A stretch of 64,000 nucleotides of DNA from Armatimonadota bacterium (GCA_046292385.1 JBKBRF010000010.1:1-64000), one strand, 5' to 3'; shown: positions 1,599 through 22,943, numbered from the stretch's first letter. The notes: generated by a model not told the origin, from the sequence alone. Program-made: numbers and translations.

Positions 1599-1608
1599 TC
1601 GCAGGACC

Positions 1609-7198: not shown

Positions 7199-7246
7199 AC
7201 TGCCTTCCAAGCAGTTGGTCGCGAGTTCGAATCTCGTCCCCCGCTT
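7199..7246 (+). repeat. att site (left boundary of the satellite): 3' part of tRNA-Gly(TCC)
   Basis: ACTGC-CTTCCAA-GCAGT anticodon arm, GCGAG-TTCGAAT-CTCGT T-arm, CCCCCGC acceptor strand. No D-arm upstream. Identical to 22896-22943. Confidence 0.92.
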
Positions 7247-7338
7247 ACTTTCCCGGTGCCGACTTCCATTTTAGGCACGAAACCAAGCAACTGCCCTAGC
7301 CCGCTGGCTCCTTTTGAACCCCTCAAAGGAGCCGGAAA

Positions 7339-8400
7339 TTGGACCAAAAAGCAACTGCTCGCCGGGTGCAGAAAGCAACTGCCCCGGTAGTCTCTGCGCG
7401 TGAGGAATCCCCTTCACGCGCTGCTCCGATGCCCCCTTCCACCGACCTGCGGCGCGCCGTCGCCGTGTGGCTCTCGGACGGTAAAGCCCAGGGCTGGAGC
7501 CCCCGCACGCTCCGCGACCGCGAGACCGCGATGGAGCGGTTCTGCTGGTGGCTGGAGAACGAGGCGGAAGTCTCCGCGACCCTCGCCGCCCTCTCCCCTC
7601 TCCAGATCCGCGCCTTCCTGGCCTACGCGCGGGAGCCGCGGCCGGAAGGCCGTTACGGCACCGATCATCCTCGAGCCCGGGACGCCGCGCGGCCGGCGAC
7701 GATCCACGCTTACTTCCGGATACTGCGCGCCTTCGCCAACTTCTGCCTCGCGGAAGGGCTGATGGAAGAGACACCGCTCCGGAACGTGAAGGCGCCGCGC
7801 GTCCCCACGGACCAGGTGCAGCCGTTCGCACAGGAGCAGCTCCAGGCGCTACTGGACGCCGCGCGCCGGAGCCGGAACCCCGAGCGCGACGTGGCGCTGA
7901 TCCTGCTACTGGTCGACTCCGGAATGCGGGCGTCCGAGGTGATGGGCCTGACGATCGGAGACGCGGACCGCGGCACGGGCGAGCTGACCGTCACCGGGAA
8001 GGGCAACAAGAAGCGGGCCGTCTATATGGGGCAGGCGGCGCGGCGAGCGCTCTGGCGCTACCTGGAGACGGAGCGGCGGGACGCGAGCCCTGCCGAGCCG
8101 CTCTTCGCTTCGACTGGTGGACACCGGCCAGGAGAGGCGTTCACCAACACCGGGATACGGCTGATCGTGGCGAACGCCGGGAAGGCGGCGAAGATCACGG
8201 GGATCCGGTGCAGTCCCCATACCCTGCGCCATACCTTCGCGGTCACGTTCCTGCGGAACGGTGGGAACCTCTTCGAGCTGCAGCAGCTTATGGGGCACAC
8301 CGACTTGACGGTGCTCCGCCGCTACGTGGCTCTCGCGGAAGCGGACCTGGCGCAAGCTCACCGGCAGGCAAGCCCTGCCGACCGGCTCAAACTAAAGTAA
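7339..8400 (+). CDS. Tyrosine integrase (XerC/D-like); true start may be ATG 7429
   Basis: SGMRASE, GKGNK, PHTLRH, MGH and RRY catalytic motifs; adjacent to the att repeat. Confidence 0.95.
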   Translation: MDQKATARRVQKATAPVVSAREESPSRAAPMPPSTDLRRAVAVWLSDGKAQGWSPRTLRDRETAMERFCWWLENEAEVSATLAALSPLQIRAFLAYAREPRPEGRYGTDHPRARDAARPATIHAYFRILRAFANFCLAEGLMEETPLRNVKAPRVPTDQVQPFAQEQLQALLDAARRSRNPERDVALILLLVDSGMRASEVMGLTIGDADRGTGELTVTGKGNKKRAVYMGQAARRALWRYLETERRDASPAEPLFASTGGHRPGEAFTNTGIRLIVANAGKAAKITGIRCSPHTLRHTFAVTFLRNGGNLFELQQLMGHTDLTVLRRYVALAEADLAQAHRQASPADRLKLK

Positions 8401-8477
8401 GCTGAAGTAGATCAGACGACAAGCGCCGGCCCTGCCTGGGAAGCTGTGGGCCGGCGCTCTCTGGGTTTGGGGCTTTC

Positions 8478-9515
8478 GTGGCTACTATACCACGGGAGCC
8501 CGGGAAGGGGCATACCACCGTGGCGGGCTGGGTTGAAGACGACTACCTTTACGACGAGGATGAGTATGATCCGGAAGCGGACGCCGAACCCACCGACGAG
8601 GAGTGGTTCGGCCCGAGTGTTCTGATCGTTCGCAACTGGCACAACCTCGCGTGCGTGGACCTTGCCAGGATCAAGGATCTCTCGGCAGAAGCTATGGAAG
8701 CCACGTGCGACCAGTGGCGATGGGAGATGATGCGTTCGGCGGGGTTTGACGTGAGAGAGCCCACGCCGCCACTGCCTATCGGCGGTGGGCTCTGGACTGC
8801 GAAAGTGCAGGTTCACGAGAACCCGTTCAAGCATCCCACGTGGCCGATCCCCCTGCGAGGCTCGGCGCTAGCCGTGGAGATGGTTCTGCGCGAATGGGTT
8901 GAAGACGAGCCGGACCCGCGACTCGCAGAAGCTTTCGCGGCGGAGTGGCGCCAGGCGCTCGAACACGCACGGTGCAGCATCCCTTCTTGGGATACTCTCA
9001 CGGTGCTCGCACAACTCGGCCTTCCGGCCACTCCTGGCACGCTCTACCACCTTTATTCGCGGACCCAGCCCGGACTGGTAGAGCATCATCTGGGTTCTCG
9101 GCCGGGGCCAACCGGGTTGACCCGCGGCGTGTGTGTTACCACGTTCTGTCTCGCCAGTGGCGTCTACCCGTTTGTAGAGACAGCGCGCTCCGCCGCCGTG
9201 CATCAAATCGAAGCCTCTCACTCCTGGGCCACGAAGGGGCTCCACGCGGATGCGATCCGTGTAGCAGAGAAGCACGCCGAATGGTGGAAGCGACGATCCT
9301 CGGCCGAGCTGCCTAAAGTGACCAAGCGGCGCGGCCGAAAGATTGGCGATGAAGGAAAGACCGCACTTCGTGTATTGCGGGGTGAAATTGCCTTCGATGA
9401 TGGGACAGAGACGCTGCGGCAGATCTTCAGAGATCGTGGTGAGACCCCTCCAGATACTCCAACCTTACGTCGAAGGTTGAGTGCTCTGGTTGACCACTAC
9501 CGAAAGAAAAAGTAA
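8478..9515 (+). CDS. Hypothetical protein of the satellite (acidic N-terminus, basic C-terminus)
   Basis: 345-aa ORF filling the gap after the integrase; no family recognised; start uncertain. Confidence 0.6.
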   Translation: MATIPREPGKGHTTVAGWVEDDYLYDEDEYDPEADAEPTDEEWFGPSVLIVRNWHNLACVDLARIKDLSAEAMEATCDQWRWEMMRSAGFDVREPTPPLPIGGGLWTAKVQVHENPFKHPTWPIPLRGSALAVEMVLREWVEDEPDPRLAEAFAAEWRQALEHARCSIPSWDTLTVLAQLGLPATPGTLYHLYSRTQPGLVEHHLGSRPGPTGLTRGVCVTTFCLASGVYPFVETARSAAVHQIEASHSWATKGLHADAIRVAEKHAEWWKRRSSAELPKVTKRRGRKIGDEGKTALRVLRGEIAFDDGTETLRQIFRDRGETPPDTPTLRRRLSALVDHYRKKK

Positions 9516-9586
9516 TAGATGAAGCTTCTAATTTGAAATCCGAGGTTTCAAACTTGGAACCTCGCCAATTACTGCCCTGCTAGAGT

Positions 9587-9626
9587 GGCTCTAGGCTGTT
9601 AACCCGGCCTAGAGCCTTTTCGTTTT
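9587..9626 (+). terminator. Rho-independent terminator-like hairpin
   Basis: GGCTCTAGGC...GCCTAGAGCC stem followed by TTTTCGTTTT. Confidence 0.7.
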
Positions 9627-9680
9627 CTGCGCTGGCACGAGCGCAACGAGACGTCAGGCGCGGATCACTCCTTCGGGAGA

Positions 9681-10049
9681 GTGCCACCAATCCTTTCCGC
9701 GCCTGACCAAACAGAGCCGCCTCCGTGGGAACGTGCCATTCCCCGGGGGTGGCTCTTGGTTTTTCAGGTGCAGCCAGTCAACCACGAGAGACCGTTCGCG
9801 GACCGACGCCGAGAGGCGGGGCTCACGCTGTTCCAGGCGGCTATCCGCCTGCGGATTAGCGAGGATCACCTGCGCCGGCTGGAACGGGGCCGCGCGCCGC
9901 TCTCGCTACGGATCGCTGGGAAGATGGCCGCGGAGTACGGCTGCACCGTTCAGGCGTTGACGCGACCCGCTGACTTTCGGGCCGGCGGGATAGGGCAGAT
10001 CGGCCGGGGGCTGAATGGAAGCGGCTCCCGGCCCCAGCGGGACCGGTGA
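9681..10049 (+). CDS. XRE/Cro-like HTH protein (start may be GTG 9768)
   Basis: RREAGLTLFQAAIRLRISEDHLRRLERG HTH_3 pattern. Confidence 0.75.
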   Translation: MPPILSAPDQTEPPPWERAIPRGWLLVFQVQPVNHERPFADRRREAGLTLFQAAIRLRISEDHLRRLERGRAPLSLRIAGKMAAEYGCTVQALTRPADFRAGGIGQIGRGLNGSGSRPQRDR

Positions 10050-10071
10050 CGAATGGGTGAGGAGCTTTCAG

Positions 10072-10326
10072 ATGACCGGATACATCACCAAGACAGGATC
10101 TTTGAGTGCAGCGCTTCTGACCGCCATTGAGCAGCGGGTGCAAATCGCCGGCGGCCGGATGGAAGTTCGCGAGTTGCTGAAGCAGCTTCCGGAGTTTCCT
10201 CGACGCCGGGTTTGCCTGGCGATCAATGAGCTGTGGGAACAGGGCAAAGTCACGTGCGGGAGCGTAGACGGTGTGGCCTTTGTCCGGCTCGACCGCCGCC
10301 CGAAGCTTCCGGGGGAGCCTGACTGA
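10072..10326 (+). CDS. Small hypothetical protein, possibly winged-helix
   Basis: GAGGAG RBS before ATG 10072; stop overlaps the next start (TGATG). Confidence 0.55.
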   Translation: MTGYITKTGSLSAALLTAIEQRVQIAGGRMEVRELLKQLPEFPRRRVCLAINELWEQGKVTCGSVDGVAFVRLDRRPKLPGEPD

Positions 10327-11060
10327 TGGCTACCGAACTGGAAGCTCCCCCGCAGCGAGTGGACCAGGACGAGGTAGAACGTGCGATCCGACTGCTGTTC
10401 CCTGAAGATCACGTGGTGGAGCTGCGCTGCCCCAAGACGCCCAACGGCTGTGTCTCTGGCTACTACGATGACGGCGACAGCCTGCACTACGATGCCTGCC
10501 AGTGGAGCGGGCGCGCCGAGTCGGTCTACGTCACCCTGAACCCGGTTCGTGAGGATCTCCTGGCGCGGGCCTGCAACCGCGCGAAGGGATACTCGAAGCA
10601 CACCACCGCTGACAAGGACATTCTGCGCCGCCGTTGGCTCCTGGTGGACTTCGACGCCGTGCGGCCGGCCGGGATCAGCTCCAACGATGAGGAGCACGAA
10701 GCGGCACTGGAGAGGGCGCGGGCCTGCCGCGATTGGCTTCACTCCCTCGACTGGCCGGCGCCGATCTACGCGGACAGCGGGAACGGAGCTCACCTGCTCT
10801 ACCGGGTAGACGGGCCGAACGACGCCGCAACGGAGCGGGCGCTGAAGAGCATTCTGGAGAAGCTTGCGCGCCAGTTCGATGACGAGCGCGTAACCGTCGA
10901 CCCGACCACCTTCAACGCTTCCCGGATCAGCAAGCTCTACGGGACCCTGGCGGCGAAGGGAGACCACGTGCCGCGCCTGGGGCGCGTTCACCGGATCGCG
11001 CGCATTCTGGACGCTCCGGACCGCTTTGAGGTGCTTCGGCTGGAAGGCGGTGCCCCGTGA
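10326..11060 (+). CDS. AEP-superfamily primase-polymerase-like protein
   Basis: WLLVDFD (motif I), DSGNGAHLLY (motif II), VDPTTFNASRISKLYGT (motif III region). Confidence 0.8.
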   Translation: MATELEAPPQRVDQDEVERAIRLLFPEDHVVELRCPKTPNGCVSGYYDDGDSLHYDACQWSGRAESVYVTLNPVREDLLARACNRAKGYSKHTTADKDILRRRWLLVDFDAVRPAGISSNDEEHEAALERARACRDWLHSLDWPAPIYADSGNGAHLLYRVDGPNDAATERALKSILEKLARQFDDERVTVDPTTFNASRISKLYGTLAAKGDHVPRLGRVHRIARILDAPDRFEVLRLEGGAP

Positions 11061-13546
11061 GTGAAGAGCAAAGCCCACTCGAACGGCTCTTCGCGGCGGT
11101 GCCAGAACCGGAGCCAAAAGGCCGGAAGGGAAACGGGAAGAAGGGGCTGCTTCGCCGTACCTCCCCCACCGGCTCCGGGGACTACACCACCCTCAAAGCC
11201 GGCGAGTGGTTCAAGCACCACAACCACTACGGCCGCGAGCTAGAACCTGGCAAACACGCCGTGCTGTGTCCTTGGCACGATCAGCACTCCGACGATCGGG
11301 GAGCCGAGGCGAGCGATACCGTGGTGTGGGATGGGGACGGGAAGAGTTGGGCGCAACTCCACTGCTTGCACGCACACTGCCAGGGCCGCACGATCGAAGA
11401 CGTGCTGAAGCTCTGGACGGATGCCGATCAATTCTGCTCCGAGCCGTTCCAACCGGTGAAGTCCTGGCGGGCTGGCGGGGAGACTACCGGAGAGTTTCAA
11501 GCGCAGGTCGACTCCCTCGTTCAGCGGGTCGAAGCCGAGAAGAATCCGGCAGCGGTCTTTGAGGCGGTGGAGCTGCTGGCGCAGCTCGATACCGCGCGCC
11601 GATCCACCTGTAAAGCGCGCCTGAAAGACATCCTCGGCAAGCGACTGAACCTCAACGATCTCGAGGCGGCAATCACCGAGGCGCGCCGCCAGCTCGCCGC
11701 TCAAGAGCTGGCAGAACGACGGAAACGGGATACCGCCAACGGCGAGAGGCTTCCCGAGATCCTCATCGGAGTTTCGCATCTGCGGGACGTGTCGGACGAA
11801 TCAGTGTCGGCCCTAGTGGCTGCGAACAACCCGCCGACCCTCTTTGTGCAGACGGACTCTCTCGCGCGCGTTCGTCTGGTAGCTGATGGGCGAACCATCA
11901 TCGAACGAATGAACGAGCCGATGATGTGCGGCCGGTTGGCGCGGGTGGCTGACTTCGTGATCCCCACGAAAGAAGACGTCCAGGCGATCACTCCCCCGGC
12001 AGACGTGGTGAGGGACGTTCTCACCCGCGGGGACTGGCCGCTTCCGGCGCTGGAAGGCGTTACAGAGATCCCGATCCTACGACGGGACGGATCGATCGTG
12101 TCGGAGCCTGGTTACGATCCGTTTGCGAGAGTGCTATACGCTCCGCCGCCAGGTTTCGCATTCCCGCCAGTGCGAGACACCCCGACCGATGCGGACGTGA
12201 CGACCGCGGCAGATCTGCTGCAGGAGATGATCTGCGACTTCCCGTTTGAGCTCGATGCTGTGGGCGCCGACGGGAACCCGCTGAAGGTGAGTGCATCGAG
12301 GGCGAACGCGCTGGCTGCAATCATCACTCCAGTAGTTCGCTACGCGATAGCGGGCGGGGTGCCGCTGGCCCTCTTCGACAAACCGCGGGCTGGGACCGGC
12401 GCGGGCCTGCTCTGTGAGGTGGTGGCGCACCTGGCGACGGGCCGACCGGCCGAGATGACGACGGCGCCGGACAACGAGGAAGAGTGGCGGAAGTCGCTAA
12501 CCAGCATCCTCGTCTCGGGGCAGTCGATCATCATCATCGACAACGTGGATCGGGCGCTTTCGTCGGCTGCACTAGCTTCGGCGCTCACGGCTAACGTGTG
12601 GATCAGCCGAATCGTCGGAACAGCGCGAGTGGCCCGGGTTCCCCAACGAGCCACCTGGCTCGCCACCGGGAACAACATCCAGCTCAAAGGGGACCTGCCG
12701 CGCCGAAGTTACAAGATCCGGATGAACGCGCGATCTGCGCGGCCATGGATGGATCGGAAGTTCCGTCATCCGGATCTCACCGAGTGGGTGCTGGAACGGC
12801 GCGGGGACTTGCTTGCGGCAGTGTTGACGCTCGCGCGCGCCTGGCACGTGGCCGGCTGCCCTGGGGGCCATGGCCCGAAGGTGGGCGGTTTCTCCGAGTG
12901 GTGCCGGGTGGTCGGCGGGATCCTGCACCACGCTGGCATCCCGGGGTTCCTGGGGAATCTGGCGGAGCTCTACAACGAAGGCGACGAAGAAGCGATCCAG
13001 TGGGAGGCCTTCTTGCGCCAGGTCTTCGAGCACTTCGAGGGCGGGTGGTTCAAGACCGCTGACTTGGCCGCGGTTGTTCACCAGTCGGCCATGGTCCGGA
13101 CCAGCCTGCCGGACGATCTGTTGGAAGTGGTGGAGAAGCCGCCGGCATCGTTCCTGCGCCGGCTAGGATGGGCGCTGAAACGACGCGTCGATACTCACTA
13201 CGGCGATGACCAGCTCCGTCTGGAACAGCGGATTGACAGTCACACCAAGATTGCGCTGTGGCGGATCAACCGGAACGCCTGCGGGGTTTTGGTTGATCAC
13301 GGCGGGGTTCTTTCAGGTGAGAGCGGGGTTCCGCGCGGGGTTTCAAACGGCCAATCTACGCACGGAAGCGGGGTTTGCGGGGTTTCTTCACTAGACCCCA
13401 TAACGCATAACGACTCCCCTACCCTCTTCGGGGATCAAGGTGGGGGTATCTCCGAAGCAAAAGAGGGCGGCGGGAAAACCCCGCAAACCCCGAAACCCCG
13501 CAACTCTGGTACGTCCGCGAACGATTACGAAGAGGGAACGCTGTGA
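11057..13546 (+). CDS. Replication protein: Zn-binding domain plus SF3-like helicase/primase-associated ATPase
   Basis: CPWH...CLHAHC, degenerate Walker A (AGTGAGLL), Walker B IIIIDN, motif C ATGNN, arginine finger DLPRR. Translationally coupled to the prim-pol gene. Confidence 0.75.
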   Translation: MSEEQSPLERLFAAVPEPEPKGRKGNGKKGLLRRTSPTGSGDYTTLKAGEWFKHHNHYGRELEPGKHAVLCPWHDQHSDDRGAEASDTVVWDGDGKSWAQLHCLHAHCQGRTIEDVLKLWTDADQFCSEPFQPVKSWRAGGETTGEFQAQVDSLVQRVEAEKNPAAVFEAVELLAQLDTARRSTCKARLKDILGKRLNLNDLEAAITEARRQLAAQELAERRKRDTANGERLPEILIGVSHLRDVSDESVSALVAANNPPTLFVQTDSLARVRLVADGRTIIERMNEPMMCGRLARVADFVIPTKEDVQAITPPADVVRDVLTRGDWPLPALEGVTEIPILRRDGSIVSEPGYDPFARVLYAPPPGFAFPPVRDTPTDADVTTAADLLQEMICDFPFELDAVGADGNPLKVSASRANALAAIITPVVRYAIAGGVPLALFDKPRAGTGAGLLCEVVAHLATGRPAEMTTAPDNEEEWRKSLTSILVSGQSIIIIDNVDRALSSAALASALTANVWISRIVGTARVARVPQRATWLATGNNIQLKGDLPRRSYKIRMNARSARPWMDRKFRHPDLTEWVLERRGDLLAAVLTLARAWHVAGCPGGHGPKVGGFSEWCRVVGGILHHAGIPGFLGNLAELYNEGDEEAIQWEAFLRQVFEHFEGGWFKTADLAAVVHQSAMVRTSLPDDLLEVVEKPPASFLRRLGWALKRRVDTHYGDDQLRLEQRIDSHTKIALWRINRNACGVLVDHGGVLSGESGVPRGVSNGQSTHGSGVCGVSSLDPITHNDSPTLFGDQGGGISEAKEGGGKTPQTPKPRNSGTSANDYEEGTL
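13281..13501. repeat. Convergent GCGGGGTT iteron-like array (putative ori)
   Basis: Six direct copies (13281, 13302, 13323, 13335, 13368, 13377) and three inverted AACCCCG(C/A) copies (13477, 13486, 13494). Confidence 0.75.
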
Positions 13547-13899
13547 AGGCTCCTGCCGTCCTGGGGGCGCTGCGGCGGTTGGGCGTGGTGCTCTGGGTGG
13601 AAGGCGACACCCTTCATTACCGAGCGCCGGCCGATACTCTGGACGCGAAGCTCCGCGAGCAGCTTCAGGCGTACAAGTGGGCGTTGATGGAGCTCGTCCG
13701 GAGAGATCACGTTGTCACGTTGGCGCAGTCGAAGGGCTTCCCAGGGCTCTACGCCTACGGTCGATACGTCGGGGCGGGGGAGATGCTGTGGCGGAAGTTC
13801 GCGCAGCGGTGTCACGCGGCCTGGTTACCGCTGGCGGTTCAGGCGCTCGAGAGTTATGAACCGTCAGTGCCGTCGGATGGAGTTATCAGCGAGGATTGA
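13543..13899 (+). CDS. TubC N-terminal docking-domain-like small protein
   Basis: LRRLGVVLWVEGDTLHYRAP...LREQLQAYKWALMELV pattern; GTGA overlap with the helicase gene. Confidence 0.65.
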   Translation: MKAPAVLGALRRLGVVLWVEGDTLHYRAPADTLDAKLREQLQAYKWALMELVRRDHVVTLAQSKGFPGLYAYGRYVGAGEMLWRKFAQRCHAAWLPLAVQALESYEPSVPSDGVISED

Positions 13900-13903
13900 A
13901 GTG

Positions 13904-14581
13904 ATGATCAGCCAGGATACGGTAGTTACCACGGATGACGCGCGGGTGACATCACTCGCTATCGAAGTCAAAGTAGTTCGGATCGGCACCCGTCAAATGA
14001 CCAAGGCGGTCTTTAGGCAACTCGGCTTTGAATCCGTGATCGATCAAAATACCGGTGAACTCTGCGGCATCCCCTGGGGGCGGATCAACGAGCATCTGGA
14101 TTGCGAACTTGAACGTGAACAAGGAAAGCCGCACTTGCACGTGATTTGGCAGAAGGGGACTGAATTACGTCGAGCAGTGGTGACAGCGTCCATTAGACGT
14201 GCAGAGGTGGATGTGCGGTTTGAGCGCGCAGTTAACGCCTGGGTTCTCGTTGCCTCTCGATGCGACGGATGGAAACCAGATGGTGAGAAGCGCGGGAACT
14301 TCCATCTGAATGCCGCAGGGGTTCGGGCGTTTGTAGCAGCAACACCACTCCTACAAGCGATTTGGGATGATCGCCAGTCCTTCTACCTCGGGGGAAATCG
14401 ATCGGTTGAGGAAGAATTTCGGTCCGCCCTCGCTTCATTCGATTACGATTACATCCCCAGTATCGAGGATTGCTCTGCCAGCCTTGAAGAATGGGCCGAC
14501 GTCATCAAGAGTCGCGATCAAGCTTACCGCGAAGCCTATGCGCAGCTTCAGTCTCTGGATCAACTCTTCATCGCTGTGTAG
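13904..14581 (+). CDS. Hypothetical protein (lower-GC cargo)
   Basis: GAGGA RBS before GTG/ATG at 13901/13904; open to 14581. Confidence 0.6.
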   Translation: MISQDTVVTTDDARVTSLAIEVKVVRIGTRQMTKAVFRQLGFESVIDQNTGELCGIPWGRINEHLDCELEREQGKPHLHVIWQKGTELRRAVVTASIRRAEVDVRFERAVNAWVLVASRCDGWKPDGEKRGNFHLNAAGVRAFVAATPLLQAIWDDRQSFYLGGNRSVEEEFRSALASFDYDYIPSIEDCSASLEEWADVIKSRDQAYREAYAQLQSLDQLFIAV

Positions 14582-14668
14582 CCTGCGACCGGTTGACCAA
14601 AGCGGACCCGAAGTTGACATTTGCTGACATGCGAGGGTCGCGCGCGTGCGCGCGCACGAGAGGCAGCG

Positions 14669-14929
14669 ATGACCGACAGGCAAGCAGTGTTCGTGGAGCA
14701 CTATCTCCGGACGTGGAACGCGGCGAAGGCGGCGCGGCTGGCCGGCTACAGCACAGCTTCGGCGAAGGTGATCGCTAACCGGCTCCTCAAGCGTTCGGAC
14801 GTGCGAGAGCTGGTTGACGCACGATTGGCGGAGGTGCGGGCGGAGACGAACCGGATCTTCGAGGAGCGGGCGCGGACGGAGCGGATCCCCAAGCGCGACC
14901 CGGTGATTATCCGGGAAGTCGACCGATGA
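14669..14929 (+). CDS. terS: Terminase small subunit (short, mainly the HTH portion)
   Basis: MTDRQAVFVEHYLRTWNAAKAARLAGYS...ANRLLK is the Terminase_2-type N-terminus. Confidence 0.85.
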   Translation: MTDRQAVFVEHYLRTWNAAKAARLAGYSTASAKVIANRLLKRSDVRELVDARLAEVRAETNRIFEERARTERIPKRDPVIIREVDR

Positions 14930-15222: not shown

Positions 15223-15408
15223 ATGGGCGAAACTTTGGAGCCTGAAGAACCGACTAATTACTTGGGACGGGTGAAGGCAAACCGCGAGATGTTGGACCAG
15301 CTCGCGCGCTCAATCCAAGACGTGGAGTATGGCGAGATCCGCATTACGATGCGCGCCGGCCACGTCGCAGAGATTAGCGAGACGCGCACCTTCCGCCCGG
15401 CGAAGTGA
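15223..15408 (+). CDS. DUF2292/YezD-like small protein
   Basis: IQDVEYGEIRITMRAGHVAEISETRTFR matches the DUF2292 pattern as I recall it. Confidence 0.75.
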   Translation: MGETLEPEEPTNYLGRVKANREMLDQLARSIQDVEYGEIRITMRAGHVAEISETRTFRPAK

Positions 15409-15522
15409 GCCCAGCCGAACAACGGCCAGCTCGCTCCGATGATCCTTACAACTTGTGACGGCCCAGCCGAACAACGGCCAGCCGGCGCACTGTGAATTCC
15501 TCACGGTGTCGCCGGCTTTCTT
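15409..15522 (+). promoter_or_regulatory. Tandem 22-bp repeats plus intrinsic terminator (attenuator-like leader)
   Basis: GCCCAGCCGAACAACGGCCAGC at 15409-15430 and 15461-15482. Terminator AGCCGGCGCACTGTGA...TCACGGTGTCGCCGGCT-TTCTT overlaps the second copy. Confidence 0.75.
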
Positions 15523-15564
15523 GGTTTCTGGCTGGTGGATTGAAACTGGACGAAAGGGAGAGTG

Positions 15565-16311
15565 ATGGTAAAGACCTACACCGCGCCGGGTTTATCGACG
15601 ATCCGCGGCGCACAGGATCGGATTGACACGATCCTGGCCGACTACGCGCAGAAGCGCAGCGAGATCCTCACGAAGCCGCGCCTGGCAGCCGGCGACCACG
15701 CCAACGGACAGAACACCCGGAAGGCGGAAGAGGAGCTGCGGGCGGAGCTGAACGGCGCCAAGCAGGTCACGCTCTGGGCGCTCGAAGACCTCTCCACCGA
15801 GGTGGAAGATGCCCACGGCGAGGCGGCGGACGACATCAAGCGCCGGCTAGGTGGCGGGAAGCCCTCGGACAGCTCCGCGGCCCTGCTGCGGGAGATGGAG
15901 CTGACGAACGCCTGGAACCGGATGAAGCCGCGCCTCGACCGCCACGACGAGCCGAGCGCTGCGGACCGCCAGCTACAGGAGTTGGTGAAGGAAGCCGGCC
16001 TCGAGCGGGACCCGATCCGGATTGACGCGCTGCTCCGGGAGGCGCGGCCGTACTTCCTGGGCCGCGGGTGGGATGAGGCGTTCATTCTGCAGGCGGCGCA
16101 GATGCTGGAAGGCGCGCTCTCCGAGATCCGGCCCGAGCTGGCGCCGGTGCTGGCTGCGCGTGTGGAGTTGGAGCAGGACATCTACCGGGCGCGGCTCTCC
16201 ATCAACTACGCGCGGACCGCCGTGGAGAAGGGCGAGGCGAGCGTGATCCTCGTCAACCCGGATGACTCCGTGCGGACCGTCACCCTGGCGGCGCCCTCGG
16301 GCGTGAGGTAG
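15565..16311 (+). CDS. Hypothetical alpha-helical protein, first gene of the morphogenesis-like operon
   Basis: GGGAG RBS; GC3-rich ORF; no family recognised. Confidence 0.7.
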   Translation: MVKTYTAPGLSTIRGAQDRIDTILADYAQKRSEILTKPRLAAGDHANGQNTRKAEEELRAELNGAKQVTLWALEDLSTEVEDAHGEAADDIKRRLGGGKPSDSSAALLREMELTNAWNRMKPRLDRHDEPSAADRQLQELVKEAGLERDPIRIDALLREARPYFLGRGWDEAFILQAAQMLEGALSEIRPELAPVLAARVELEQDIYRARLSINYARTAVEKGEASVILVNPDDSVRTVTLAAPSGVR

Positions 16312-16316
16312 GGCGA

Positions 16317-16670
16317 ATGGACGCGCGCGAGTTGGCGTCAGCGCGGCAGACGGTGGAAGCCACGTTCACCGATGTAGCGACGGTGACGCGGCAGGGTTGG
16401 CCGGAGCGGAACCGGCAGGGTGGCGCAGTGGCAGAGCACGTCCCGCTCGCTTCCTACCGGTGCCGACTGCTGCCGGGGCCGGGCCTGGAGACGGTGGAAG
16501 GCGGGCGGATCGTGTCCGTCACCACCTGGCGGGCGCTGCTGCCCTACAACGCCGACGTGCGGCCCACAGACCGCCTGACGATCCACGGCGTCGAGTACGA
16601 GGTGATCGCTACCAGTGACGGGGCCTCGGTGGAGCTGGAGCTGCGAGCGGAACTACGGAGAGTGCAATGA
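16317..16670 (+). CDS. Phage head-tail adaptor / head closure protein
   Basis: 117 aa, beta-rich; LLPYNADVRPTDRLTIHGVEYEV resembles SPP1 gp16/DUF6093-type joining proteins. Confidence 0.75.
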   Translation: MDARELASARQTVEATFTDVATVTRQGWPERNRQGGAVAEHVPLASYRCRLLPGPGLETVEGGRIVSVTTWRALLPYNADVRPTDRLTIHGVEYEVIATSDGASVELELRAELRRVQ

Positions 16671-17080
16671 CGACGGAGCGAAAGAGCCGGAGCCGGAAGG
16701 CTTCGCAGGTGGAAGCGGTGGCGGCGACGATCCAGCCGGCCGCCAAGGGGGTCTCGCTGGCGAAGCTGCGGAGCCGGGCCACGCGGACCGCAACCCTCCA
16801 GCTCGGGGGCGAGGTGGTGCGGCTCGACTACCAGCCTTCGCGGTTCACGCCGGCCCTACAGAAGCGGCTGGAAGCGGTGGCGGCGGAGCCTGGCGGCGAG
16901 GGCCTGGTGAAGCTGGAGACGCTCGCCGCGGTGCTCACCGGCTGGAACCTGGAAGACGAGGCGGGGAAGCCGCTGCCGGTGACGGCGGAGCAGCTCGCGG
17001 AGCTCGATTACGAGTTTCACGCGCTGGCGGTGGATGCGATCGTGCGGGACCTGGTGCCGCAGGCGGAACAGGCGGCATAA
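16667..17080 (+). CDS. Putative tail assembly chaperone
   Basis: VLTGWNLEDEAGKPLPVTAEQL motif; directly upstream of the tape measure gene. Confidence 0.65.
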   Translation: MTTERKSRSRKASQVEAVAATIQPAAKGVSLAKLRSRATRTATLQLGGEVVRLDYQPSRFTPALQKRLEAVAAEPGGEGLVKLETLAAVLTGWNLEDEAGKPLPVTAEQLAELDYEFHALAVDAIVRDLVPQAEQAA

Positions 17081-17120
17081 GCCGCGGGGCCTACGGGCCG
17101 GTAGGGAAAGGGGGTGCGGG

Positions 17121-19976
17121 GTGACGGCGGCAAGATTGAACGCGGTCTTGACCTTGGACGCGGGCCAGTATCATCGGGGCCTACGGGACGCGGAAGACCG
17201 GGCGCAGCGGTTCTCGCGGACCGTGAGCAGCGGCACGGGTGCGGCCTCGGACGCGCTCGGGGGCCTGGGGCGGGCCTTCAGCTCGCTCGCGTCGGTGGGT
17301 GGCGGGGCGCTGGGGATGATCTCCGGCGCCTTCTCCGCGGTGGCCGGCGTGGCGGCGAACCTGGCCGGCACGGCGCTCCGGACGGTGGCGGACGCCTTCC
17401 GGGAAGTGGTGCAGGCGGGCGGGGCCGCGGCGGCAGTAGTCGGCGGGACGCTGGCGGCGGCCTTTGTGGCGCTCGGGAAAACCGGCATCGACATGAACCT
17501 GTCGATCGACGGGGCGCGGGCGGGCCTGACGGCGCTCACCGGCTCCGCCGCGGCCGCAGAAGCGTTGGTGTCCAAGCTGCGGGAGACGGCGTTCTCCACC
17601 CAGCTCGGGTTCAAGGAGCTGCTACCACTCGGGACGCAGCTAGCCGGCGTCTACGGGCCGGAGGGCCTGGGGCGGGTCATTCCGACCATCGAAGCCTTCG
17701 ACGCGGCACAGAAGGCGCTCTCCCTCAACAGTGACGCCGTGCAGCGGGCCATGCTCGGGTTCCGGCAGATGCTCTCCCGTGGGAACCTCACGGGCGAAGA
17801 GTTGAACCAGATCCAAGAGAACCTCGACGGTGTGGACGTCCGCGGCATCCTGAAGCGGGCCTTTGGCACCGGGGACACGGAGCTGCTTGCCGATGCCGGC
17901 GTCACCGGGCGGCAGGTAGCGGACGTGCTGGTGAACTCCTTCCTGACGCAGTTCGGGGCGGCAGCGAAGGCGGCGGAGAACCGGCTGCCGGTGCTGCTCT
18001 CGGGCTTTACGGACGCCTTCCGGGAGCTGGGGGGCGGCGCCACGCGGACCGCGCTCGGGATGCTGGAGAGCGGCCTGAAGCCGATCCTCGAAGCCTTCAA
18101 GAGCCTGGCCGCCAACGAGCGGTTTGTGTCGGCCCTGGCGGTGCCGTTCGAGCTGCTCGCGGCCGCGGTGCAGAAGGTGGGCGAGGCGGCGCCGGCCTTT
18201 ACCGCCTGGCTCGGGGAAGTCGTCACCCGGGAGAACGTGATCGGGATTCTGGCGCAGATCGGCGGCGGGGTGAAGACGATTACCGACGAGGTAGGCGGCT
18301 TTCTCTCTCGCGTCACCGGGGGCGCCGGCTTCGGGTCGGTCTGGGATGCGTTCGGCGCCGCGGCGAAGAAGGCGCTGGAGCTGGTGGCGCGGGCCTGGGG
18401 CGGCGTGACCGGCGGCATTGAGTATTTCGCGCAGAACTCGGACATGTTCTGGAATGGGATCATCGCGGGCATCGACCGCGTGAAGCAGGCTATTGAGCCC
18501 TTGGTCGGCCTCGTCACCGTCCTGGCCGGCTCCCAGCTCCTCGGGGGCGGGATCGGTGGGGGCCTGAACCTCGCGGGCGGGCTGATGGGTGGCGGTGGGC
18601 TGGGAGGCGGCAACCCGATCGGGATGGCGCTCCTGGCCGGCCTCGGCATCCAGACGGCGCAGGGGCTCGCAGCAGAGAAGGCGGAGAATGCGCTCGGCGG
18701 AGGTTGGGTGGGCAAGGTGTTCGGAGACGCTATCGCCAACTTCGGCGGGCCGTCTCCGGTGCCTAACCTGGTCCGCAACCGGGAAGGGATCTTCGAGGGG
18801 CTCAAAAAGCAGATCCCCGAAGCGCTCCGCGGCATCGGTAAGAGCGTGCTCGGGACGGGGGCCGACTTCGCCGGCAGTCTCATTCCGCCGGAGCTGAAGA
18901 ACTTCGGCAGCGGGCTCCTCTCCCATATGGGGCAGAGCGGACAGGCGGCGGTCGATCGGCTCTTCGGGGGCCACGCCGCGAACGTGGCGAACGCGCAGAA
19001 GGCGATTACGCAGGCGCTCGCGCCGAAGGCCAAGGGCGACGAGCTGGCGCCGAAGATGAAGCTGTACGGGCAGGGTGCGGGCCAGGGGGCCGGCGGGATC
19101 GTGCCGGCGCTGCCGGATAAGAAGGCGCTGGCGCAGGTGCTCAAGGCCTGGGATGGCTATTACGACGCGCTGCGGGAGCAGGTGCGGCTCACGGTGGCGC
19201 AGGTGAGCGACGAAGTAAAGGCGCGGGTGGAGATGCAGGAGCTAGTGCCGCAGCTCCTCTCCCAGATGCAGACGCTGGTCCTGCCGGCGCTGCAGCGGTC
19301 GAAGCAGGGGACGGAGGAGTTCTACTCCGCGCAGCGGGAATACTTCCGCCTCTCCACGGAGATCGAAGAGCTGCGGGCGAAGGCAGCCAACGAGGAAGAC
19401 AAAGAGATCCGGCGCCAGCTTGACGACCGGCGGAAGGCGGCGGAAGAGGCGCAGAAGCGCGCACAGGACCAGCTCCGGGAAGCCGGCGCGCGGACCAACT
19501 TTGCCGAGGCGATGCTCCAGGCGAATCCCTTCCTGAACGACCGGCAGCGAATGCGGGGCCTGGTGCCGGCGCTGCTGCAGCAATTCCGAGCGCAGCTCAA
19601 CCCGATCGCCGGCGAGAGCGGCAACGAGCGGTTCGGACGTCTCACGGACGCGGCGGGGATCATCCAGAAGCTCAACGAGACGTTCGGGCTCAATCGCGGG
19701 GTGGCGCTCGCTGGCGGCGGAATGCTGAACCTGGGAGACCGCCAGGGGGCGGGGATGGTGAGCCAGATGCTCGGGCAGTTGGACGCGGCGGCGCGCCAGC
19801 CGCTTGCGCCAGCCACGGTGGAGCCGACCGGCCCGCGGAACCTGACGGTGAACTTCAACCCGAACATTCAGGCATTCGACCTCCGGGACCCGCGGCTGCG
19901 GCAGCAGCTCCATCGGCAGTTCGATGAGCACTTGACGGAGTTGTATAACCAGGGATACCCGTCCCCGTCCTACTAA
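17121..19976 (+). CDS. Phage tail tape measure protein
   Basis: TMP-type start (AARLNAVLTLDAGQY), tape-measure domain (MLGFRQMLSRGNLTGEELNQI), Ala/Gly-rich helical body, coiled coil. GTG start after AAGGGGG. Confidence 0.9.
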   Translation: MTAARLNAVLTLDAGQYHRGLRDAEDRAQRFSRTVSSGTGAASDALGGLGRAFSSLASVGGGALGMISGAFSAVAGVAANLAGTALRTVADAFREVVQAGGAAAAVVGGTLAAAFVALGKTGIDMNLSIDGARAGLTALTGSAAAAEALVSKLRETAFSTQLGFKELLPLGTQLAGVYGPEGLGRVIPTIEAFDAAQKALSLNSDAVQRAMLGFRQMLSRGNLTGEELNQIQENLDGVDVRGILKRAFGTGDTELLADAGVTGRQVADVLVNSFLTQFGAAAKAAENRLPVLLSGFTDAFRELGGGATRTALGMLESGLKPILEAFKSLAANERFVSALAVPFELLAAAVQKVGEAAPAFTAWLGEVVTRENVIGILAQIGGGVKTITDEVGGFLSRVTGGAGFGSVWDAFGAAAKKALELVARAWGGVTGGIEYFAQNSDMFWNGIIAGIDRVKQAIEPLVGLVTVLAGSQLLGGGIGGGLNLAGGLMGGGGLGGGNPIGMALLAGLGIQTAQGLAAEKAENALGGGWVGKVFGDAIANFGGPSPVPNLVRNREGIFEGLKKQIPEALRGIGKSVLGTGADFAGSLIPPELKNFGSGLLSHMGQSGQAAVDRLFGGHAANVANAQKAITQALAPKAKGDELAPKMKLYGQGAGQGAGGIVPALPDKKALAQVLKAWDGYYDALREQVRLTVAQVSDEVKARVEMQELVPQLLSQMQTLVLPALQRSKQGTEEFYSAQREYFRLSTEIEELRAKAANEEDKEIRRQLDDRRKAAEEAQKRAQDQLREAGARTNFAEAMLQANPFLNDRQRMRGLVPALLQQFRAQLNPIAGESGNERFGRLTDAAGIIQKLNETFGLNRGVALAGGGMLNLGDRQGAGMVSQMLGQLDAAARQPLAPATVEPTGPRNLTVNFNPNIQAFDLRDPRLRQQLHRQFDEHLTELYNQGYPSPSY

Positions 19977-20015
19977 CGCAACGCCTCTATCCCCATCCGC
20001 GTTAGAGGAACAACT

Positions 20016-20054
20016 AGCCCTCGCTCCCGAACAGGCGGGCGAGGGCTTTCTTTC
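20016..20054 (+). terminator. Intrinsic terminator after the tape measure gene, preceded by GAACAAC
   Basis: AGCCCTCGC...GCGAGGGCT followed by TTCTTTC. Confidence 0.7.
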
Positions 20055-20071
20055 GCTTGGAGGGCGGGCAG

Positions 20072-20416
20072 ATGTGGCGATGGGTGGCGCGGCTGGCGCT
20101 GGTGTTGATCGTGGCGGCGGGCCTGGTCGGCTGTAAGAGTGATCCGGCGTTCGTGGGGACGTGGCGGGTGAGTGGCAGCTCCGGCGAGACGCTCACCATC
20201 GGGCGCGACGGTTCATTCATCGCGGGGATGGGTGACGCCGGCTCTCGGACGGCTCAATGGAAGCTGGCAGAGGGCGACGTGCTGGAGATTCACTCGCCCG
20301 AGAATCCGCAGCCGGCGCGGAACCGGTGGACGGTGAGCGAGGACGGGAAGACGCTGACCCTGACGCCGGTGGGCGCGGAGACAGGCGCCGACACTACCAC
20401 GTTCACCCGCCAGTAG
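20072..20416 (+). CDS. Small beta-rich lipoprotein (lipocalin-like)
   Basis: Signal peptide with LVGC lipobox followed by FVGTW. Confidence 0.75.
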   Translation: MWRWVARLALVLIVAAGLVGCKSDPAFVGTWRVSGSSGETLTIGRDGSFIAGMGDAGSRTAQWKLAEGDVLEIHSPENPQPARNRWTVSEDGKTLTLTPVGAETGADTTTFTRQ

Positions 20417-20555
20417 CTCCGGCCCGACAGCAAGCGGGCCGTTCATTTGCCCGAGAACTGACGCGGGGTATCTCGGGCCGCGCCTCTCCCCTACTCGCGT
20501 CAGATTTCAGCCACGCGCGGCCGGCGGGGCATTTGCGGGAGACGGTCAGAGCGGT

Positions 20556-20882
20556 ATGACGGGCTACGAGCTGTGTAACTACCGGGAGGGAATGCGGATC
20601 GCGCTCCAGGAGCTGGCGCACGAGCTGCGGGTCTCCCGGAACCGGCTGGCGCGGATCGAGCAGCTCCCCGAGGTGCCGGCGGAAGAGGAGCCGCGCATCC
20701 TCACCGGAATGGCGCGCATCCTGCGCCGGCGGGTGCAGGTGTTGGAGCTCGCCCGCACTCACAGCGCCCGGGGGCGCGGCAGCGAAGTAGCGGCGGGCTC
20801 CCCGCTGGCTACTCCCCTACTCGGCGCCGGCTTCCAGCAAGCCGATCCGCCGCGCCTCTTCGCGTGTGAGCATCCGCAGTAA
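20556..20882 (+). CDS. HTH (XRE-like) protein
   Basis: YREGMRIALQELAHELRVSRNRLARIE; the 3' end overlaps the convergent gene. Confidence 0.55.
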   Translation: MTGYELCNYREGMRIALQELAHELRVSRNRLARIEQLPEVPAEEEPRILTGMARILRRRVQVLELARTHSARGRGSEVAAGSPLATPLLGAGFQQADPPRLFACEHPQ

Positions 20883-21017
20883 AGCGGTCAGGCTCACGCC
20901 GCCACGCCGCCGCGCCAGCTCTTCCAAGAGCGCCAGGCCGGCTTCATCTTCGTAGTGGGAGATCCGCACAGGATAGGCTTTGTTCGCCTTCCGCTTGCTT
21001 GGGGTGGAGTCGTCCAT
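20817..21017 (-). CDS. Ribbon-helix-helix (CopG/Arc-like) regulator
   Basis: YPVRI strand followed by LLEELARRRGGVSLTALLRMLTREEA helices; 66 aa. Confidence 0.65.
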   Translation of the reverse strand: MDDSTPSKRKANKAYPVRISHYEDEAGLALLEELARRRGGVSLTALLRMLTREEARRIGLLEAGAE

Positions 21018-21076
21018 AAGCCCAAGTATAGCGCGAAAAGAACACCCATACAACGCTATTAAGACGCTTCCACAAC

Positions 21077-21105
21077 CTGACACAGCGTTACTGCAACGCT
21101 ATAAT
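21077..21105 (+). promoter_or_regulatory. Sigma70-type promoter with a palindromic operator in the spacer
   Basis: CTGACA-N17-TATAAT; AGCGTT-N5-AACGCT at 21084-21100. Confidence 0.7.
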
Positions 21106-21190
21106 AAGGGTGTAGGTAAGACGAAGGGCCGGCGACACTCCCGCGAAGAAGACCGCCGACCCTCCCTGACCCCCTCAAAGGAGTCCCCTT

Positions 21191-21577
21191 ATGGTAGCAC
21201 TTCCCACGGCTGACAGTCGCGCGCAGCGAGCGGTCCGCGACTTCGACCGCTACGACTTCCGCGCCGTGGAGATCAAGACCAGCCGCGGCCCGGTGACGGC
21301 GGTTTACGTGACGGCGCCGGCCAAGAAGGACGGCTTCCGCACGGTCTACACCGTGGCGCTCCACCCGGCCGAGAACTCCGCCCGGTGTTGCTGCGGAGAT
21401 GCAATCCATCGCGGCGTCCGCTGCAAGCACGCCTGGATGGCGCTGGCGTTCCTGAACGTGAAGGAGCCGCGCGAGTTGGCGCCGCAGCCGGCCGCGGTCC
21501 CTGTGGTGGATGAGACCCCGGAAGAGCGGGCGGCGCGGCGGGCTCGCGTCCTGAAGGACCGGGAGCTGTGGGACTGA
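21191..21577 (+). CDS. SWIM zinc-finger protein
   Basis: YTV...CCCGD...RGVRCKH (CxCxnCxH); AAGGAG RBS. Confidence 0.8.
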   Translation: MVALPTADSRAQRAVRDFDRYDFRAVEIKTSRGPVTAVYVTAPAKKDGFRTVYTVALHPAENSARCCCGDAIHRGVRCKHAWMALAFLNVKEPRELAPQPAAVPVVDETPEERAARRARVLKDRELWD

Positions 21578-21861
21578 TGGAGCGGTGCGCCTGCTGCCTG
21601 AAAGAGAACGTGGGGCCGGCCGAGGCGAGAGTTTCGGTCCGGTCTCTCGGTCGCGTCTTGTGCGCGAAGTGTCGACTTGCCGGCCGGGTGCCGGATCCGG
21701 ACCACGAGCGAGAGGAGGTGCTCGAGAGTGACGTGGCGCCGCGGGGCGCCTATGGGCTGTGGGCGGCGCAGGTCCGCACCGCGGCCGGTGTCTTTGAAGG
21801 GTTCGGCCAGACCGCGCGCCAGGCGCTTCAGCGCGCCCACACGCGGGCGGGACTGGCCTGA
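21577..21861 (+). CDS. Small Zn-ribbon-like hypothetical protein
   Basis: CACC...CAKC; TGATG coupling to the SWIM gene. Confidence 0.55.
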   Translation: MERCACCLKENVGPAEARVSVRSLGRVLCAKCRLAGRVPDPDHEREEVLESDVAPRGAYGLWAAQVRTAAGVFEGFGQTARQALQRAHTRAGLA

Positions 21862-21916
21862 CACAGAGCGAGGGCGGAAGGTGCTCGTAACACCTTCCGC
21901 CCTCTTCGTTCACTGA

Positions 21917-22345
21917 ATGGAGATCCGAATGAACGTGAACCATGATACCCAACGGGAGGGCCCGGCGGAAGTTACGGCGGGGGGAGCCGATTTGGTGGCA
22001 GCTCTGCTGGCAGAGATTGCCTCGAAGGAGCCGCCGACCCTGGAAGGGGCGCGCGCGCTGGCGCTGGCGTTCCGCCAGGTGCTTGGCGTCACCGGTGAGC
22101 CGACCGCGGAGCACGCGCTACGCCTCTGGAATTGCGTAGCCGGGCAACTGCTGGAGAAAGAGCCGCGCCCGCGGCTTGAGGGCCTGGAACAGCCGATTAG
22201 GCCGGACACCACGCGCCTGGTCGCGTGGTGTGTCGCCGGCCTGCTCTTCACCCACGTCCGCGAGGGGGAGCTGCCGCACCGGCTCGACTGCGCCGAGGAG
22301 TTCCTGCGCGTGTGGCTCGACCGCCCCGAGGAGCCGTCGCCGTGA
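21917..22345 (+). CDS. Hypothetical protein
   Basis: ORF downstream of a leader hairpin, coupled (GTGA) to the MraZ-like gene. Confidence 0.55.
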   Translation: MEIRMNVNHDTQREGPAEVTAGGADLVAALLAEIASKEPPTLEGARALALAFRQVLGVTGEPTAEHALRLWNCVAGQLLEKEPRPRLEGLEQPIRPDTTRLVAWCVAGLLFTHVREGELPHRLDCAEEFLRVWLDRPEEPSP

Positions 22346-22737
22346 CGGGAACTCACTTCTACAACCTCGATCGGAAGGGCCGGGTAGTCATCCCGGCCCC
22401 ATTCCGCGCGGAGCTGGGGGAGCCGATCATCCTGGCGCGGGCACCGAACCGGACCGTGGTAGCGATGCCGCGCGACCGGTGGGAGACGGCCGCGGCGAAG
22501 CGGGACGGCGAGCTGTTCCGGAACTTCTTCCTCTCGGGCGCCGTGGAAGTGCGTCCGGACGCGTTCACCGGCCGGGTGCAGATCCCGCACGCGCTGCGGC
22601 AGCATATGGCGCTGCGGTTCCCGCAGGAAGTCACCGTGGCCGGCGTGGGAGCCGCTGCGGTGCTCTGCGAGCGCGGCCGGTGGGACGCGCACCTGCGCGA
22701 GCTGGAGACGCGCCTGGTGGCGTTCTTGCTGGGGTGA
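22342..22737 (+). CDS. mraZ: MraZ-like (SpoVT/AbrB tandem) transcriptional regulator
   Basis: GTHFYNLDRKGRVVIPAPFR and FFLSGAVEVRPDAFTGRVQIP are two DxxGR-type repeats; not in a dcw cluster. Confidence 0.8.
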   Translation: MTGTHFYNLDRKGRVVIPAPFRAELGEPIILARAPNRTVVAMPRDRWETAAAKRDGELFRNFFLSGAVEVRPDAFTGRVQIPHALRQHMALRFPQEVTVAGVGAAAVLCERGRWDAHLRELETRLVAFLLG

Positions 22738-22895
22738 AGGAACCCGGGCTCGGGTAGACAAAAGTAGACATAATAAGGGACAACTGCTCCGCCGACGCAA
22801 AGGCAACTTCTCTGCGCCGGCAGAAAGCAACTGACCCACGTTCTAGGCCAGCAGGCTAGGCACAGATTGTTAGATTTTATCCGGGGGACGAGACA

Positions 22896-22943
22896 ACTGC
22901 CTTCCAAGCAGTTGGTCGCGAGTTCGAATCTCGTCCCCCGCTT
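22896..22943 (+). repeat. att site (right boundary): 3' part of tRNA-Gly(TCC)
   Basis: 48-bp identity with 7199-7246. Confidence 0.92.

Follow-up and report, generated by a model that had tools for sequence, protein, structure and literature searches.

The 64,000-nt window analysed here (bases 1-64000 of the 148-kb contig C10, from a metagenome-assembled Armatimonadota genome of 7.04 Mb in 91 contigs) carries a 15.7-kb element, element B, in which genes for a phage neck protein and the core of a phage tail accompany genes for integration and replication. The evidence tips modestly towards element B being an integrative, self-replicating, helper-dependent phage satellite. This reading draws on perfect att repeats, an intact integrase with arm-type motifs at both ends of the element, a primase/helicase of its own and a compact block of tail genes.

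The limits of element B are marked by a perfect direct repeat of 48 nt (48/48 by blastn), as an earlier interpretation made from the DNA alone (the sequence-only reading) had proposed. The bases immediately outside the two copies differ, and the probability of a 48-mer recurring by chance within 21 kb is negligible. The element itself comprises 7247-22895 plus one att core, and its ends are made up as follows.

7199-7246, + strand: left att core, 48 nt, equal to the 3' 48 nt of tRNA-Gly(TCC); the point where a neighbouring element, element A, meets element B
7285-7382, + strand: left arm, in which the motif AAGCAACTGC occurs three times, as putative arm-type sites of the integrase; related copies at 22801 and 22825 on the right arm
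22896-22943, + strand: right att core, 48 nt, a perfect copy of the left core

The real tRNA-Gly(TCC) gene of this genome lies on another contig (C44, 52174-52245), and its last 47 nt together with the following base constitute the 48-nt att core. On its 3' side come an integrase 68% identical to that of element B, a helix-turn-helix (HTH) gene 50% identical to that of element B and a RepB-like primase, and the contig stops 6.3 kb past the tRNA gene (locus L008, C44 52174-58554). A degenerate AAGCAACTGC pattern has 11 matches in the 148-kb contig, 7 of them at the two ends of the element. A second motif, AGTCACTAC, is clustered on the right side of the C44 tRNA, with further copies in the window at 7082 and 7129, immediately before the left att core; to judge from these motifs, the two integrases appear to have distinct arm-type sites. 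A tandem array, tRNA-Gly::element A::att::element B::att, would explain this most simply, with element A running off the end of C44 and re-entering at the start of C10; as the ends of C44 and C10 show no overlap, the link between the contigs is inferred. Because the att core is shared, the C44 integrase is related and the C44-type arm motif recurs at the junction, element B seems to have entered beside a sister element as a 15.7-kb circle, that is, as an independent integration unit.

No tRNA was detected by ARAGORN anywhere in the window. The regions 7184-7245 and 22881-22942 are scored weakly as tRNA by Rfam (30 and 35 bits), but these matches consist of the att core with upstream or arm sequence and contain no D arm, and with ARAGORN negative we rejected a functional tRNA at either repeat. 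Automatic annotation could mislabel both att regions as tRNA genes. The 3' end of the att core occurs a third time, as a perfect copy of 15 nt, at 24716-24730, 1.8 kb to the right of element B, with an acyltransferase gene (23362-24600, minus strand) in between; it may be a relic of an older integration.

The genes that distinguish element B from an ordinary integrative island form one block near its centre.

15562-16311, + strand: o249, an all-alpha protein of 249 aa; first gene of the block o249, head closure, chaperone, tape measure
16317-16670, + strand: head-closure/head-completion protein (gp16_SPP1-like stopper); PF05521, 31.7 bits against a cut-off of 25; phrog_501
16667-17080, + strand: tail assembly chaperone, 137 aa, assigned from synteny and a weak fold match
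17121-19976, + strand: tape measure, 951 aa; PF20155, 47.1 bits against a cut-off of 41; TIGR02675, 32.7 against 21.35

The junctions within the block are tight. Only 5 nt separate o249 from the head-closure gene, the head-closure and chaperone genes overlap by 4 nt, and the tape measure starts 40 nt past the chaperone, at GTG 17121 in a frame that is open from 17034. Full prophages have two or three genes, including that for the tail tube, between head closure and chaperone. The head-closure protein had been called an adaptor in the sequence-only reading; a head-tail joint protein it is, but one of the closure or stopper type, with PF05521 over its cut-off and the gp16_SPP1 family match falling just below its own.

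The same genome contains candidate helpers, as had been anticipated, in the form of three prophage-like regions with TerL, portal, capsid and tube-like tail genes.

Prophage C12, ~83-118 kb: TerL, portal fused to a head-morphogenesis domain, capsid, head closure, 323-aa tail protein, and further on chaperone, 992-aa tape measure, distal tail genes and fibre
Prophage-like region C40 (L007), ~17-35 kb: TerL, portal, scaffold, capsid, head closure, 323-aa protein, distal tail genes
Prophage C37 (L056/L057), 35.5 kb to the contig end: primase, helicase, endolysin, 263-aa Terminase_2 TerS, TerL, portal, and further on protease, capsid and a tail protein, then the beginning of a tape measure that the contig end interrupts

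The tape-measure-like open reading frame (ORF) of C40 is only 227 aa long and matches just the C-terminal part of other tape measures, reflecting either a very short tail or a deletion. The affinities of element B to these regions are split: its head and tail parts point to C12 and C40, and its TerS-like protein and a 108-aa gene to C37, so that no single helper can be named. The head-closure protein shares 43-44% identity with its counterparts in C12 and C40. For the chaperone, identity to the C12 and C40 proteins is 29-32% over the aligned protein and 35-36% in local BLAST matches.

The assignment of the 137-aa protein as a chaperone draws on its position and on fold comparisons. Homologues lie immediately upstream of the tape measure in C12, in C40 and in a prophage of another genome, G063. 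Sequence searches of the PDB with the chaperone and its profile, and likewise with the primase and the 244-aa replication protein described below, gave nothing significant. An AlphaFold2 (AF2) model built from a four-sequence alignment is mediocre (pLDDT 67); its best Foldseek match in the PDB is the HK97 chaperone 2ob9 (E 0.16, probability 0.75). A wide VIA search gave Z>=5 for 3 of 48,161 chains, namely 3fgx (7.6), 5ir0 (5.1), which is ORF19 of a Vibrio phage-inducible chromosomal island-like element (PLE), and 2ob9 (5.0), the superposition on 5ir0 having an rmsd of 3.8 over 90 aligned residues. The fold scores are weak but coherent, and taken with the synteny they lead us to accept the protein as a probable tail assembly chaperone.

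Comparisons of the tape measure with those of prophages point to two different affinities. Its last 260 aa share 35% identity with the C12 tape measure and are collinear with it to the C-terminus (35-37% for C12 and C40). Its N-terminal TMP_3 domain is instead 41% identical over 296 aa to tape measures of two full prophages of G063, where the gene order is head closure, two genes, tube, chaperone, tape measure and distal tail. With an N-terminus like that of G063 and a C-terminus like that of C12 and C40, the tape measure is, as judged from these alignments, a mosaic of which only the C-terminal, tip-proximal part resembles the resident prophages.

In all, 21 genes were accepted in element B, all of them on the + strand and intact, in keeping with the near-single-strand layout described earlier. 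Of the gene order given in the sequence-only reading, the integrase, HTH, helicase, chaperone and tape-measure assignments stand, and the names prim-pol, TerS and adaptor need refining. The genes outside the tail block are the following.

7339-8400, + strand: tyrosine integrase, XerC/D-like; PF00589 (6e-33), phrog_1 (8e-48); the relative of the C44 integrase
8478-9515, + strand: 345-aa ORF without family match; Atlas model of pLDDT 0.40
9681-10049, + strand: HTH regulator of Cro/CI type; PF13560 (6e-8); the relative of the C44-element HTH gene
10326-13546, + strand: split replication protein, with a 244-aa N-terminal piece (10326-11060) and an 829-aa primase/helicase (11057-13546)
13543-13899, + strand: 118-aa protein with a TubC_N-like docking domain; PF18563 (3e-12)
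13904-14581, + strand: ORF of ~225 aa without significant family match
14669-14929, + strand: 86-aa TerS-like HTH protein; PF03592 (1e-15; 59.1 bits, over its cut-off)
14926-15126: 66-aa ORF whose start overlaps the TerS-like stop; no family match
20072-20416, + strand: small protein with a lipoprotein-like signal sequence, read by eye from the sequence; no family match
20556-22737, + strand: right-end accessory genes, with ORFs of 108, 128, 97 and 142 aa and an MraZ/AbrB-like protein

The two pieces of the replication protein are joined through overlapping stop and start codons. The larger matches phrog_19930 and phrog_10537. The smaller, previously read as a prim-pol, has no family match of its own; it shares 43% identity with the N-terminal part of a fused primase homologue of 1018 aa in another genome. 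Relatives occur in 40 of the 401 genomes of the phylum sample, and a TubC_N-like domain also follows the primase in two related loci (L038 and L050). A strong terminator-like hairpin was seen after the 345-aa ORF (9587-9616), and a further terminator-like hairpin follows the lipoprotein-like ORF (20420-20441). Among the right-end genes, the 108-aa protein (20556-20882) is 58% identical over 65 aa to the product of a C37 gene, the 128-aa protein has a weak SWIM zinc-finger match, and the MraZ/AbrB-like protein (22342-22737) matches PF02381 (5e-15).

The TerS-like protein needs particular care. Its match to PF03592 (Terminase_2) is clear, but it aligns with positions 1-81 of the 141-position profile only, so that what had been called TerS is an 86-aa HTH protein corresponding to the N-terminal, DNA-binding part. 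The oligomerisation core and the TerL-binding C-terminus of small terminases lie beyond that domain. The protein collection contains the protein in this 86-aa form, and over 61 aa it shares 36% identity with the N-terminal part of the 263-aa TerS from prophage C37. With only the DNA-binding third of a small terminase, it makes the TerS-based redirection of packaging previously suggested doubtful.

No match to TerL, portal, protease, capsid, tube, distal tail or tail-tip, fibre or lysis families was found among the ORFs scanned against Pfam, PHROGs and NCBIfam (24 ORFs in the first rounds of scanning, 21 element ORFs in a later one). Remnants of such genes were sought in the element by tblastn, the queries being all ORFs of 60 aa or more in the six frames of five prophage regions. 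Matches below 1e-4 were confined to the integrase, head closure, chaperone, tape measure and 108-aa gene, and none corresponded to TerL, portal, capsid, tube or tail-tip genes. The reported absence of portal, TerL, capsid, tube, tip and lysis genes is thereby upheld.

The same data bear on whether element B is simply a decayed prophage, a temperate siphovirus that lost its terL-to-capsid, tube and distal tail genes by deletion and left an inert remainder. Homologues of the head-closure, chaperone and tape-measure genes do sit in full prophages of canonical order, the TerS-like gene is short, and an origin of this kind would fit with our finding no sister copy of the element. Decay would, however, call for at least three separate deletions, each with clean junctions such as the 4-nt stop/start overlap and the 5-nt gap noted above, and with no fragment of the lost genes detectable by tblastn. 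Every ORF is open, and neither the att sites nor the integrase show damage. Neither the gene fragments nor the disrupted gene order of defective prophages is seen, the junctions being tight and overlapping, and an independent element described below (L070) has o249, chaperone and tape measure without head genes. The sequence-only reading had allowed that close homologues might prove to be full prophages from which this copy was deleted; we found no close homologue in a full prophage, the relatives inside prophages being only 22-44% identical. We consider decay unlikely.

The first gene of the tail block, o249, encodes a member of a small, unnamed protein family. An exhaustive HMMER search gave 40 cluster representatives at E<=1e-3, all of ~225-330 aa except one of 179 aa, and most of them aligned across most of their length. 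The AF2 model of o249 is confident (pLDDT 93.9, pTM 0.85) and has eight helices and a C-terminal hairpin. Foldseek found no match to it at E<=0.001 in the PDB or BFVD, the wide VIA search returned only generic helical bundles (best Z 9.9), and an Atlas structure search gave TM<=0.34. The possibility that 15562-16311 encodes a major capsid protein, on which the earlier interpretation could have foundered, was rejected, since the confident all-alpha model is not an HK97 fold and has no significant fold match. Our guess is that o249 is a helper-exploitation factor, for example an assembly scaffold or a packaging redirector.

Relatives of o249 are sparse in the phylum. Its profile matched 7 of the 401 phylum genomes, including its own, the other six weakly (best 2.6e-6). 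Two of the weak matches, L065 and L067, were dropped because the surrounding genes have no phage-structural PHROG match. A third weak o249-like gene, at L066 (G250 contig C93, 1-7000), comes after a TerL in two ORFs (258 and 255 aa) and before a 682-aa 'tail protein' (phrog_1887) and an excisionase; this reduced cluster at the start of its contig also has a 109-aa ORF, and no portal or capsid gene comes after TerL. A word-index protein search returned a single homologue of o249; for the chaperone and the TerS-like protein it returned nothing but the query.

One o249 relative (P0006) led to metagenome contigs, among them WNFY01002587.1 with a second element of comparable design, L070. It is 12.1 kb long and lies between two copies of a 61-nt repeat that are 87% identical, and one of these copies overlaps tRNA-Arg(CCT). 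It carries an integrase, an Xis-like HTH gene, a replication initiator, an o249 homologue, three small ORFs, a chaperone and a tape measure, and it has no head, terminase or tube gene. The chaperone is a protein of 123 aa recognised with the chaperone profile by hhalign (probability 89%, E 2e-6); the tape measure, of 1144 aa, matches PF20155 (4e-27). The head-closure profile matched none of four small ORFs of L070 and L066. The search for related elements proposed earlier gave this second att-bounded chaperone/tape-measure element, and no sister of element B with the same gene order was found.

L070 has a close sister, L069 (WNGK01005323.1), with the same attL and with nucleotide identities of 87% in the integrase and 86.5% in o249. 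Further downstream, L069 has an SNF2 helicase and an MmeI-like restriction-modification enzyme where L070 has chaperone and tape measure, and the cassettes appear to swap at one position. This raises an alternative in which element B is an integrative island whose tail cassette is cargo, its products acting as decoys that poison the tail or neck assembly of infecting or resident siphoviruses, and which itself spreads otherwise or only rarely. Besides the L069 genes, two further observations are in line with it. Element A, whose integrase is related to that of element B, bears in its visible part (window 1-7198) a low-GC gene for a 1644-aa STAND/NACHT-type NTPase at 1797-6731, besides an HTH gene at 180-383 and a second tyrosine recombinase on the minus strand at 636-1598; and the closest relative of the primase, found in genome G035, is part of an island that also has Mrr/AAA and PD-(D/E)XK genes. 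Defences that block tail assembly are also known in prophages and in phage-inducible chromosomal islands (PICIs) (PMC11364771, PMC10884400).

On the other side, PADLOC matched none of 17 ORFs, 12 of which are in element B, in a scan that covered genes other than those of the tail cassette. The tape measure is full-length, at 951 aa, comes with a chaperone of its own and ends in a helper-like C-terminus, as a working tail part would, and the same gene set serves transfer in the PLEs, according to the portion of PMC12987554 that deals with them. The roles in transfer and interference are moreover compatible with each other. We regard the cargo reading as unlikely.

A broader proposal would accommodate both kinds of cassette. 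In this proposal o249 marks a cross-phylum lineage of small satellites that integrate at tRNA genes, the slot downstream of it receives interchangeable cassettes, either for tail hijacking (chaperone and tape measure, here with head closure) or against phages (restriction enzyme, NTPase), and the C-terminus of the tape measure is re-matched by recombination to the tail tip of the resident helper. If so, the satellite would build helper-compatible tails independently of the tape measure of the helper. We put this forward tentatively, as possible but doubtful.

The assembly itself could also be at fault, in which case element B would be a chimera of metagenome contigs or would be joined to this genome by one. 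The assembly is in 91 contigs from a metagenome, and unitigs break at the att core, of which there are three copies. In the run that is the probable source, however, the body of element B is a single 14,999-nt unitig at a depth of 62.8, equal to that of the right flank (63.9); the left flank is at 86.8, and the att unitigs are at 160-230, as expected of a three-copy repeat. The contig of the window is continuous through both junctions, and the GC content and codon pattern of element B are host-like. An artefact is very improbable. The sequencing runs comprised one holder of the element, the probable source, and two additions, and no RNA holder was listed. The unitig over the end of element A (6000-7223) has a depth of 86.8 compared with 62.8 for element B and 63.9 for the right flank (together 7219-24000), which could reflect an extra copy of element A or a strain difference. 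A few listed att joints, with sides of 20-22 nt and 90% likeness, were judged to be noise from other organisms.

If element B is a satellite, its cycle might run as follows. Induction of, or infection by, a siphovirus of the C12/C40 kind would lead element B to excise and replicate. It would be packaged into heads made by the helper, its DNA either marked by the TerS-like HTH protein or carrying the pac site of the helper. Its own head-closure protein would complete the particle, and tails would be built on its own tape measure, kept soluble by its own chaperone. Through its helper-like C-terminus the tape measure would dock with the tail tip of the helper, which would also provide tube and fibres. 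The outcome would be chimeric tails, as with the Vibrio PLEs, and the element may benefit by becoming independent of the tape measure of the helper or by interfering with it.

Several observations weigh against the satellite interpretation. The cassette swap between L069 and L070 fits a cargo role as well as one in transfer. No sister copy or close relative of the whole of element B was found in genome contigs, in IMG/VR or in the phylum genomes. At 20 loci with primase homologues, tblastn found none with TerS, o249, head closure, chaperone or tape measure, and none of the 10 of these loci that were annotated with Pfam has a tape measure or head-closure gene, these being diverse islands and phages. 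The identity to the candidate helpers is modest (29-44%) and, on these comparisons, divided among them. Covering only part of its profile, the TerS-like protein may not function as a small terminase. Nine ORFs are without annotation, and one of them may be a very divergent structural gene. Finally, the assembled unitigs of the probable source run contain no att-to-att joint, unitigs being unsuited to a test of excision, and they show no depth excess of element B over its right flank.

Wider searches gave little more. The primase search of genome contigs yielded two distant loci, and one locus was found in IMG/VR with the primase; none was found there with the tape measure or with four o249-family proteins. 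Among the INPHARED phages, tblastn gave no match with o249 (E<=0.01) or the tape measure (E<=1e-5).

Known satellites provide a frame for the comparison. PICIs, including the SaPIs (Staphylococcus aureus pathogenicity islands), are ~15 kb in size, with an integrase at an att site, their own primase and a small-terminase-like gene, and have no capsid or lysis genes; typically a divergent repressor pair lies near the integrase. To our knowledge PICIs carry no tail or connector genes, nor other phage structural genes beyond factors for packaging or capsid size. Element B resembles them in size, in integrase and att site, in its replication module, in its small-terminase-like gene and in the lack of capsid and lysis genes. 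It differs in its head-closure, chaperone and tape-measure genes, and in having an HTH gene co-oriented with the integrase, all genes being on the + strand. Like the capsid-forming cf-PICIs, element B would make part of the virion itself, but with the opposite division of labour: cf-PICIs make heads (capsid, portal, protease and terminase) and borrow tails, whereas element B lacks head-shell genes and would make neck and tail parts.

Closer parallels come from satellites that encode tape measures. In Vibrio PLEs, the tape measure, chaperone and baseplate hub encoded by the satellite replace those of phage ICP1 in chimeric tails, and the PLE proteins are 20-41% identical to the phage counterparts, as given in the portion of PMC12987554 drawn on here, which also reports putative tmp genes in other satellites, some cf-PICIs included. 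Element B shares with the PLEs, so far as that portion describes them, a small integrated satellite genome with its own chaperone and tape measure, the other tail parts being taken in the PLE case from the helper, and a low identity to helper counterparts (20-41% in the PLEs, 29-44% here). The PLE protein 5ir0 is also among the three best VIA folds for the chaperone model, a likeness compared at the level of fold only. PLEs differ in having the lytic myovirus ICP1 as helper and in encoding a baseplate hub, and that portion of the account mentions no head-closure gene; element B is of siphovirus type, has a tyrosine integrase at a tRNA site and belongs to a different phylum.

In gene content, compared by gene description from the part of PMC12822802 that covers them, the EPIPs (Extracellular Prophage-Inducing Particles) of Mycolicibacterium aichiense are closest to element B. 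These elements, of ~11 kb, have TerS, adaptor, stopper, HTH, serine integrase and tape-measure genes; tail tube, large terminase and lysis genes are lacking in that description, a scaffold and a major capsid protein are annotated, and free particles induce the helper (PMC12822802). Element B, in contrast, has a tyrosine integrase (PF00589), a primase/helicase and a chaperone, and no match to capsid or scaffold; neither the serine integrase nor the scaffold and capsid that characterise the EPIP lineage are found in it. What it does have are the marks of tape-measure-encoding satellites in general, being small, with its own integration and replication genes and with tape measure and chaperone but no complete head or tail. 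The claim of a new satellite type is accordingly weakened, as both PLEs (PMC12987554) and EPIPs (PMC12822802) are described as encoding tape measures, and on those descriptions the mechanism has published precedent and is not a new idea. What is particular to element B is its phylum, its siphovirus-type neck-plus-tail-core cassette without capsid, its mosaic tape measure, o249, and the tandem array with a defence-like sister island.

The host is uncultured, belongs to a phylum that has been little studied and is reported to come from a hot spring. If element B is mobilised, the hijacking of tails by satellites, previously shown only for the Vibrio PLEs and suggested for the EPIPs, would extend to a siphovirus-type system, and the head-closure protein would join the parts that a satellite may supply. 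The mosaic tape measure offers a testable idea of how the tail core of a satellite might be matched to the tail tip of its helper. The o249 family and the L069/L070 pair provide handles for finding similar elements, and for asking whether the tail genes of satellites serve transfer, defence or both.

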